Shown one piece after another: positions 4,631 through 4,765 of a stretch of 6,371 nucleotides of DNA. Both the position numbers and the translations under genes were made by a program. Source of the stretch: a virus (Duplodnaviria > Heunggongvirae > Uroviricota > Caudoviricetes); IMG/VR virus record IMGVR_UViG_2778261504_000024; one strand, written 5' to 3'. Each line of letters begins with the position of its first letter. Position 1 is the stretch's first letter. The notes below the pieces were generated by a model. It was given only the letters and a program-made list of their open reading frames with translations. It did no database searches and had not been told where the DNA came from.

Positions 4631-4707
4631 TATGTTTTACCTCGTTAATCCGGCGTATTCCGGTGATAAATACGGTAAAACAGGGCAGGGCGGGAAAAAC
4701 AGTACCC

Positions 4708-4723
4708 ACCGTTTTAAAACGGT
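4708..4723. promoter_or_regulatory. Perfect 16-bp palindrome ACCGTTTTAAAACGGT upstream of alpA (candidate operator / protein-binding site)
   Basis: Self-complementary 16-mer at 4708-4723, extended by CAGT/ACTG at 4700-4703 and 4728-4731. About 80-95 bp upstream of the alpA start, between the orf76 terminator and alpA. Confidence 0.4.
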
Positions 4724-4765
4724 ATCCACTGTTTTTTATCTCATTGATTACGCTTTTCTTTCTGC

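Follow-up and report, generated by a model that had tools for sequence, protein, structure and literature searches.

A tandem array of two conserved dyads precedes alpA in a tRNA-Pro/yejM phage-inducible chromosomal island lineage and is a candidate alpA operator

Introduction

What switches on alpA in the phage-inducible chromosomal islands (PICIs) of Gram-negative bacteria, and at which DNA site? We considered this question for a 6,371-nucleotide stretch of DNA, the IMG/VR virus record IMGVR_UViG_2778261504_000024 (here called the window), in which a short symmetrical element precedes an alpA gene on the minus strand. In EcCICFT073 and EcCIMP1, AlpA acts as the activator of the island cycle and also turns on its own promoter, and helper phages, not the SOS response, switch alpA on, even in an alpA mutant (PMC6092414, PMC11773190). 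The inducer and the DNA sites at PICI alpA promoters have not been identified in published work (PMC6092414, PMC11773190), helper sensing has been an open question since 2018, and Gram-negative PICIs are currently thought to have no Stl-like repressor (PMC6092414). A sequence-only reading of the window had singled out a perfect 16-bp palindrome upstream of alpA, extended to 32 bp, as lying in the position expected of an operator or activator site. Here, we report that this palindrome is the junction between two conserved 20-bp dyads and that the tandem array formed by these dyads is a candidate control site of alpA.

Results

Anatomy of the array upstream of alpA

The exact 16-bp palindrome ACCGTTTTAAAACGGT was read directly from the sequence at positions 4708 to 4723, within the longer symmetrical stretch CAGTACCCACCGTTTTAAAACGGTATCCACTG at 4700 to 4731. 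It is the only perfect palindrome of the window with arms of at least 6 bp and, because the alpA open reading frame occupies 4424 to 4630 on the minus strand, it lies 78 to 93 bp upstream of the alpA GTG start codon at 4630. In 2,000 first-order Markov simulations of 6,371-bp sequences, a perfect palindrome of at least 16 bp was present in 9.7% of the sequences. The 16-mer alone is thus statistically unremarkable, and the earlier statement that it is unlikely by chance holds weakly. The extension of the symmetry to 32 bp is real, but it is better drawn as four 8-bp half-sites that form two 20-bp dyads.

Repeat analysis and motif scans revealed four 8-bp copies of the half-site AAAACNGT, in alternating orientation, in the element at 4696 to 4735, to which no strand was assigned. 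The promoter-proximal dyad, unit 2 (4696 to 4715, minus strand), reads AAAACGGT-GGGT-ACTGTTTT in the alpA sense and AAAACAGT-ACCC-ACCGTTTT on the plus strand. The distal dyad, unit 1 (4716 to 4735, minus strand), reads AAAACAGT-GGAT-ACCGTTTT in the alpA sense and AAAACGGT-ATCC-ACTGTTTT on the plus strand. The junction of the two units, likewise unstranded, is the perfect palindrome of the sequence-only reading. The dyad consensus was AAAACRGT-N4-ACYGTTTT, and the dyads are spaced by 20 bp, which corresponds to two helical turns. By our own counting, the half-site cores follow the pattern ACNGT-N4-ACNGT, a 5-4-5 geometry that is typical of helix-turn-helix dimers. In the window array, the first half-site differed from the other three at 2 of 24 positions, whereas the best four-half-site array among 3,000 random sequences had six mismatches. 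In addition, five of the window's eight copies of the heptamer CYGTTTT fell within 4677 to 4735. The array is placed after the terminator of the neighboring gene orf76 and 66 to 105 bp before the alpA start. It is present as a single copy in the whole island of approximately 11 kb, as read in the near-identical island L001, and was found neither at the promoter of the replication operon nor in the att arms.

Conservation of the array

The 201-bp region from 4600 to 4800 matched 374 of 5,426 complete Escherichia coli genomes. Conservation was evaluated on 46 loci from E. coli records and IMG/VR contigs, which represented 26 distinct promoter sequences with AlpA proteins 65 to 100% identical to that of the window. 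In the proximal dyad, all 16 half-site positions were invariant in the 26 sequences, and the variation was confined to positions 2 and 4 of the four-base spacer. The distal dyad was less conserved: position 6 was A, G, or T, the spacer was variable, and the unit was degenerate in the relative L079. The flanking sequences (35 bp upstream and 18 bp downstream) showed majority frequencies of only 0.77 to 0.80. Position 20 of the array was T in 15 of the 26 sequences, which makes the palindrome perfect, and A in the other 11, in which the junction reads ACCGTTTAAAAACGGT. In two independent lineages (L013 and L048), an exact one-unit deletion removed the junction and kept the proximal dyad. The array as a whole was therefore conserved across homologous islands, whereas the 16-mer was not, being perfect in 15 of 26 sequences and deleted in two rare alleles with conserved flanks. 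The palindrome is a seam between two conserved 20-bp dyads, not a conserved functional unit.

The tandem form was restricted to this island family, which accounted for 49 of 49 loci returned by a scan of IMG/VR. When the single-unit pattern was scanned instead, 79 of the 120 returned loci had no alpA homologue; these were isolated units in unrelated, mostly low-GC contigs, and one group with a GC content of 0.5 lay in the portal-scaffold region of an unrelated phage. A scan of genome contigs with AlpA returned only distant homologues from Acidobacteria and Alcanivorax. No paper describing this element was found in a literature search. The array is a previously undescribed example of a familiar element type.

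The alpA promoter region and neighboring repeats

A sigma-70 consensus scan of positions 4300 to 5300 returned zero sites, and when six relatives were scanned with a weight matrix, none of the promoters was both good and conserved. These results bear out the earlier statement that alpA has no good sigma-70 promoter. The sole invariant -10-like hexamer between the array and alpA was TACCGT (4672 to 4677, minus strand), which has no -35 element. It lies inside the block TTTACCGTATTT, in which 10 of 12 positions were invariant, and keeps the three key -10 positions T1, A2, and T6. If TACCGT is a -10 element, transcription would start near 4664 to 4667, and the dyad centers at 4705.5 and 4725.5 would lie at about -41 and -61, respectively.

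Between the array and the ribosome-binding site of alpA, two blocks were nearly invariant. One is TTTACCGTATTT; the other consists of two 10-bp direct repeats, CACCGGAATA and CGCCGGATTA (4646 to 4665, minus strand), just upstream of the ribosome-binding site. A 10-bp duplication gives three copies of this repeat in L106. Two further copies of their CCGGAWT motif lie as a pair in the interval from the att core to the start of int (L001 positions 11061 and 11081, within 11061 to 11087). The CCGGAWT repeats are candidate sites for AlpA as an excisionase or regulator and appear to fit that function better than the dyads do.

A putative orf76 promoter (5077 to 5126, minus strand) was recognized in the int-orf76 spacer by a perfect TATAAT at 5082 to 5077, which was invariant in 19 distinct sequences. 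Direct repeats of the form AAAAC/AAACC, phased at 10 bp, precede or abut this TATAAT and resemble the array half-site. They may constitute a second operator or may reflect phased A-tract curvature. AAACCG repeats also precede the equivalent gene, orfX, in islands of Salmonella, Dickeya, Pectobacterium, and Klebsiella.

Sister islands with similar AlpA proteins and different repeats

Sister islands occupy the same tRNA-Pro/yejM site in Salmonella (L134, L137, and L159), Dickeya (L156), Pectobacterium (L157), and Klebsiella (L158). Their integrases are approximately 80% identical to that of the window, and their AlpA proteins are 65 to 86% identical to one another and to the window AlpA, with the helix-turn-helix and wing almost unchanged; the AlpA of L134, for example, is 73% identical to that of the window and 86% identical to that of L159. 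The repeats before alpA, however, were of different kinds. L134, L156, and L157 carry a dyad, ACCGTGAGGG-N11-13-CCCTCACGGT, L158 carries five copies of CTACCAA, L159 carries four to five copies of TACCCAY, and L137 carries eight copies of AAAACTTCCA. For at least three of these four repeat sets, namely the dyad, CTACCAA, and TACCCAY, a change of repeat is accompanied by a change in the C-terminal domain of the gene located between int and alpA. The AAAACTTCCA set of L137 goes with an apparently unrelated gene product of 251 amino acids, which showed no detectable similarity to the orfX proteins or to orf76. Because nearly the same AlpA helix-turn-helix is combined with different upstream repeats, AlpA is unlikely to be the binder of the array. 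These comparisons make a lineage-specific factor of the island the more likely binder.

orf76 as the first-candidate binder

The gene between int and alpA in the window is orf76 (4801 to 5031, minus strand), which encodes a predicted three-helix protein of 76 amino acids with a C-terminal GGRPKKW tail and is a candidate for the array binder. In the sister islands L134, L156, L157, L158, and L159, the corresponding orfX proteins (220 to 257 amino acids; genes at about 2001 to 2770 in L156 to L159) have a common N-terminal domain and different C-terminal domains. The orfX proteins of L134, L156, and L157 are only 45 to 53% identical and go with the same repeat type. orf76 is a free-standing copy of one of these C-terminal domains. 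It is 52% identical to the C terminus of the L159 protein, and its profile matched the proteins of L159 (E = 1.9e-21), L134 (E = 2.2e-5), and L157 (E = 4.7e-5). A profile search of 1.8 billion proteins returned 611 homologues of orf76, mostly at the C terminus of proteins of 200 to 270 amino acids without a Pfam domain. orf76 was found in every array-bearing locus, and across the lineages its domain co-varied with the repeat type.

The AlphaFold model of orf76 consists of a three-helix bundle (pLDDT 80) and a disordered basic tail, and helices 2 and 3 show a helix-turn-helix-like pattern. Domain and fold searches assigned no DNA-binding family or fold to the protein. Although the protein diverges to 65% identity, its putative recognition helix and its GGRPKKW tail do not vary. 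This tail is reminiscent of an AT-hook or of the GRPR arm of Hin. The constancy of helix and tail would match that of the half-sites, in which an A/T tract stands beside the ACNGT core. These features make orf76, rather than AlpA, the first candidate for the binder of the array.

Genomic context

The gene order on the minus strand is int, orf76, terminator, array, and alpA. The tyrosine integrase gene int (5130 to 6371, minus strand) adjoins tRNA-Pro and yejM in relatives; the distance to the tRNA-Pro gene is approximately 210 bp there, and a second copy of the att core stands at the far end of the island. The intrinsic terminator of orf76 (4774 to 4793, minus strand) has a 7-bp stem with five GC pairs followed by T7 and a folding energy of -10.4 kcal/mol. 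The alpA gene (minus strand) encodes a protein of 68 amino acids from its GTG start, with GAGG at 4640 to 4643. The protein matched Pfam PF05930, Phage_AlpA (E = 4.5e-8), and its PHROG annotation is "excisionase and transcriptional regulator." Beyond alpA are a convergent ribbon-helix-helix-like YlcI/YnfO gene, an Icd-like gene, a DUF4222 gene, a RepA-like helicase gene with an iteron origin, and a single-stranded DNA-binding protein (SSB) gene. The helicase (AAA_25, RepA-like) is encoded at 873 to 2288, and the origin-like cluster of CCCCACTTTT iterons, both direct and inverted, is located downstream of its gene at 680 to 875. The near-identical island L001 has an identical array but a different primase and, instead of CCCCACTTTT, P4-type TGTTCACC iterons. 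The replication module has therefore been swapped behind an unchanged int-alpA module. Near-identical E. coli chromosomal copies beside tRNA-Pro/yejM add capsid, decoration, terS, and PerC genes, which were read in L001 outside the window, and form the island of approximately 11 kb.

These islands have an integrase at one end with att sites, alpA downstream of int in the same orientation, a primase or helicase with an iteron origin, and a small size without tail or lysis genes, as expected of Gram-negative PICIs. They resemble EcCICFT073, the reference Gram-negative PICI, in the order of int, alpA, the convergent YlcI/YnfO gene, the Icd-like gene, DUF4222, primase/helicase, SSB, PerC, and capsid, and the YlcI/YnfO protein of EcCICFT073 is identical to that of L001. 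EcCICFT073 differs in its int and alpA alleles (31% AlpA identity) and has neither orf76 nor AAAACNGT dyads. Because the gene architecture and one protein (YlcI/YnfO) are common to both, the island is taken as a PICI with a different int-alpA module. From its sequence alone, the window is classified as an EcCICFT073-type PICI at tRNA-Pro/yejM.

Other observations were made in the course of annotation. AGYTATACG / AGTTATACG repeats, which look like integrase arm-type sites, occur at both att ends (L001 262 to 282 and 11007 to 11056). AGYTATACG was counted four times near the int promoter of L001 (two direct and two inverted) and twice near the far att site. An open reading frame of 393 amino acids (3238 to 4419, minus strand) is almost certainly spurious: only its C-terminal 80 or so amino acids (about 3238 to 3480) match an Icd-like or "transcriptional repressor" PHROG, and the rest overlaps two real plus-strand genes, at 3641 to 3946 (YlcI/YnfO family) and 3989 to 4177. 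Positions 3480 to 3640 form a divergent control region between the YlcI/YnfO-like gene (plus strand) and the Icd-like replication operon (minus strand). In P1 and P4-type elements, small immunity RNAs occur in such divergent control regions; in the window region 3480 to 3640, no Rfam family was matched and the dyad motif was absent. Near the PerC end of the island, a (GGCT)n tetranucleotide run (ggctggctggct...) was present at L001 600 to 650 on the minus strand.

Discussion

The anatomy, conservation, and position of the array lead us to favor, on balance, the reading that it is a protein operator for alpA bound by dimers of a lineage-specific factor. The assignment of orf76 as this factor carries about half of that confidence and is accordingly tentative. 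In the proposed mechanism, a dimeric DNA-binding protein would occupy each dyad, probably cooperatively. The proximal dyad, centered at about -41, would overlap the place expected for a -35 element, and the distal dyad would be centered at about -61. Occupancy of the dyads would then decide whether RNA polymerase uses the promoter-poor region before alpA, and the orf76 product would be the gatekeeper of alpA, most simply as a repressor. These results partly support the earlier proposal that the element controls an activator-dependent alpA promoter: the position of the element, its conservation above the flanks, the lack of a promoter, and the published dependence on an activator agree with an operator or activator site for alpA, but the 16-mer was the wrong unit.

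Several observations weigh against the operator reading. EcCICFT073, the island studied by experiment, is inducible by helper phages even though int and alpA are not separated by a gene there and dyads of this kind are absent. The C-terminal domain most similar to orf76 (52% identity) is that of L159, but the motif of the window is not present in this island. Since orf76 adjoins the array, their co-inheritance could be simple linkage. The -41/-61 geometry depends on one weak hexamer, TACCGT. The single-unit alleles were found in only 2 of 77 genomes of their subgroup; they say little about which unit is sufficient and were rejected as proof of a minimal unit because of this rarity. Moreover, conserved arms with freely varying spacers are equally expected of an RNA hairpin.

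The last point leads to a reading at the RNA level, in which the transcribed 40-nt array would fold into a hairpin that acts as a second, bidirectional terminator or attenuator and insulates alpA from read-through of int and orf76 or from antisense transcription. The outer stem would be formed by half-sites 1 and 4 and the inner stem by half-sites 2 and 3, whereas the spacers would form an internal loop and the central T/A change would fall in the apical loop. The predicted hairpin, which is flanked by A6 and U5 tracts, has -11.4 kcal/mol in the window and -10.9 kcal/mol in the group with 75% identity without the A/U tails, and -17.4 kcal/mol when these are included (z = -3.4). It equals the real orf76 terminator (-10.4 kcal/mol) in stability. 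The A-to-G change at position 6 keeps the pairing by replacing A-U with G-U, and a terminator scan flagged a terminator-like site at 4724 to 4707. However, only four pairs, two of which are GC, form the base of the stem next to a 2x2 internal loop, an arrangement uncommon in efficient terminators, the hairpin has a low GC content, and a canonical terminator is already present 40 nt upstream of the array. Among the relatives, no compensatory double changes were found, only the one-sided change from A-U to G-U, and L106 and L079 bring mismatches into the outer stem. The single-unit alleles retain a stem of only -0.4 kcal/mol, the sister islands have direct repeats in the same place that are incapable of forming hairpins, and the related half-sites at the orf76 promoter occur as direct repeats. 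We therefore regard a hairpin function as unlikely, though it is the main rival of the operator reading.

Other readings keep a protein at the array and change its identity. If the dyads were AlpA's own autoregulatory sites, they would provide positive feedback at the alpA promoter. AlpA sites must lie near alpA, since autoactivation by AlpA is established for EcCICFT073 and EcCIMP1 (PMC6092414, PMC11773190), and the half-sites resemble the AAACCG repeats kept upstream of the neighboring gene in all lineages. Against this, near-identical AlpA helix-turn-helix regions are paired with completely different upstream repeats, and the array occurs nowhere else in the island, including the replication-operon promoter and the att arms. 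Small winged-helix proteins of the Xis/AlpA type typically bind phased direct repeats as monomers, and the CCGGAWT phased repeats beside the alpA ribosome-binding site and in the att arm offer sites of this type. Autoregulation by AlpA through the dyads is thus improbable. Somewhat less probable again is that the array is the docking site of an activator encoded by the helper phage or the host, that is, the helper sensor of the island. The published induction of alpA by helper phages independently of SOS and of AlpA would fit such a sensor, as would a promoter without a -35 element and dyads at what would be activator-typical positions. The half-sites stay invariant even where AlpA and orf76 have diverged to 65% identity, as expected for a binder encoded elsewhere, and the lineage-specific repeat sets could reflect different helpers. 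On the other side, BLAST of positions 4640 to 4760 found no similar sequence in 50,697 GenBank phage genomes, which is a weak test for a short motif and still compatible with a phage-encoded binder. In IMG/VR, the tandem form is limited to this island family and the single-unit matches elsewhere are unrelated. Finally, the array could be functionless, as a chance palindrome or the relic of a local duplication: the 16-bp palindrome alone has a chance of about 10% per window, and the unit number changes by slippage or recombination. Four half-sites were never approached in 3,000 random sequences, however, and the half-sites are conserved above the spacers and flanks in 26 distinct sequences, which makes the absence of any function very improbable.

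Additional candidates were rejected. A leader peptide was considered for the 30-codon open reading frame that runs from GTG at 4729 to TAA in the alpA ribosome-binding site; this frame has only four codons in the 75%-identity group. A replication-initiator site was suggested by the loose resemblance of CCCCACTTTT to CCCAC(CG)TTTT, but L001 has an identical array together with TGTTCACC iterons and a different primase. An integrase arm or att element was rejected because 1.9 kb separate the array from the att core and because the repeats of the arms are AGTTATACG. The Pseudomonas AlpA antiterminator is a larger, unrelated Q-like protein (with DNA-contact residues numbered to 142) that acts at GGGACG between -35 and -10, whereas the protein here is a Phage_AlpA/HTH_17 protein of 68 amino acids. 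For Ogr/Delta, sigma-54, DnaA box, IHF, CRP/FNR, LacI-family, SlmA, and lambda operator half-sites, only partial matches (TATCCAC, GTGAGTAC, and TATCACCG) were seen, at positions that vary between relatives. In these comparisons, made by visual inspection of the alignment, none of the E. coli factors CRP, FNR, DnaA, IHF, LacI family, and SlmA had a consensus that was recognized in the array, which also speaks against a host activator. An Rfam scan of the window gave no match at E <= 1.

Compared with known systems, the array resembles the OR1/OR2-type operators of lambda and the class II/class I sites of CRP and FNR in having dyads of approximately 20 bp, two of them on the same helix face, the proximal one of which would overlap the -35 position of a promoter that lacks a -35 element. 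Its sequence is unrelated to the lambda, 434, P22, CRP, or FNR consensus. In the int-alpA spacer of EcCICFT073, six ACAAC repeats phased at 10 bp follow directly on int (L144 7188 to 7250) and GACACAAYCC repeats stand just before the alpA ribosome-binding site (L144 7449 to 7480), and these occupy the same relative places as the repeat sets of the window. The Ogr and Delta sites of P2 and P4 (TGT-N12-ACA at -55) and the P2 Cox boxes at P4 PLL are also found at satellite promoters without a -35 element, where a helper-encoded protein acts at an upstream symmetric or repeated site. By direct reading, however, TGT-N12-ACA is absent from the array in all groups, and PICIs of this type have lambdoid rather than P2-like helpers. 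If orf76 or the larger orfX proteins bind the repeats, they would resemble Stl of the staphylococcal SaPI islands as an island-encoded gatekeeper beside int that controls the induction switch, with a DNA-binding part and another domain that are both exchanged between lineages. Unlike Stl, orf76 is co-oriented with alpA, not divergent from it, no sequence or fold relationship is seen, and its repressor role is putative.

A broader possibility, which we put forward as speculative and more doubtful than not, is that a gatekeeper module lies between int and alpA in the enterobacterial tRNA-Pro/yejM PICIs. Such a module would comprise orfX with a conserved N-terminal domain and exchangeable C-terminal DNA-binding domains, each paired with its own operator repeats, of which E. 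coli would keep only orf76 and the tandem dyads. If this is true, the module would fill the place of the missing Stl-like control layer in Gram-negative PICIs, with the array as the site where helper sensing becomes alpA expression.

Altogether, one widespread island lineage has in this array a candidate control site that is short, has sharp limits, and is highly conserved. If orf76 is not its binder, the array would be an ordinary promoter-proximal regulatory site or a backup terminator; if orf76 binds, Gram-negative PICIs would have an island-encoded gatekeeper after all. A 40-bp probe, three candidate proteins, and simple reporter mutants would allow a direct test of this question. The array thereby gives a concrete handle on how Gram-negative PICIs switch on.

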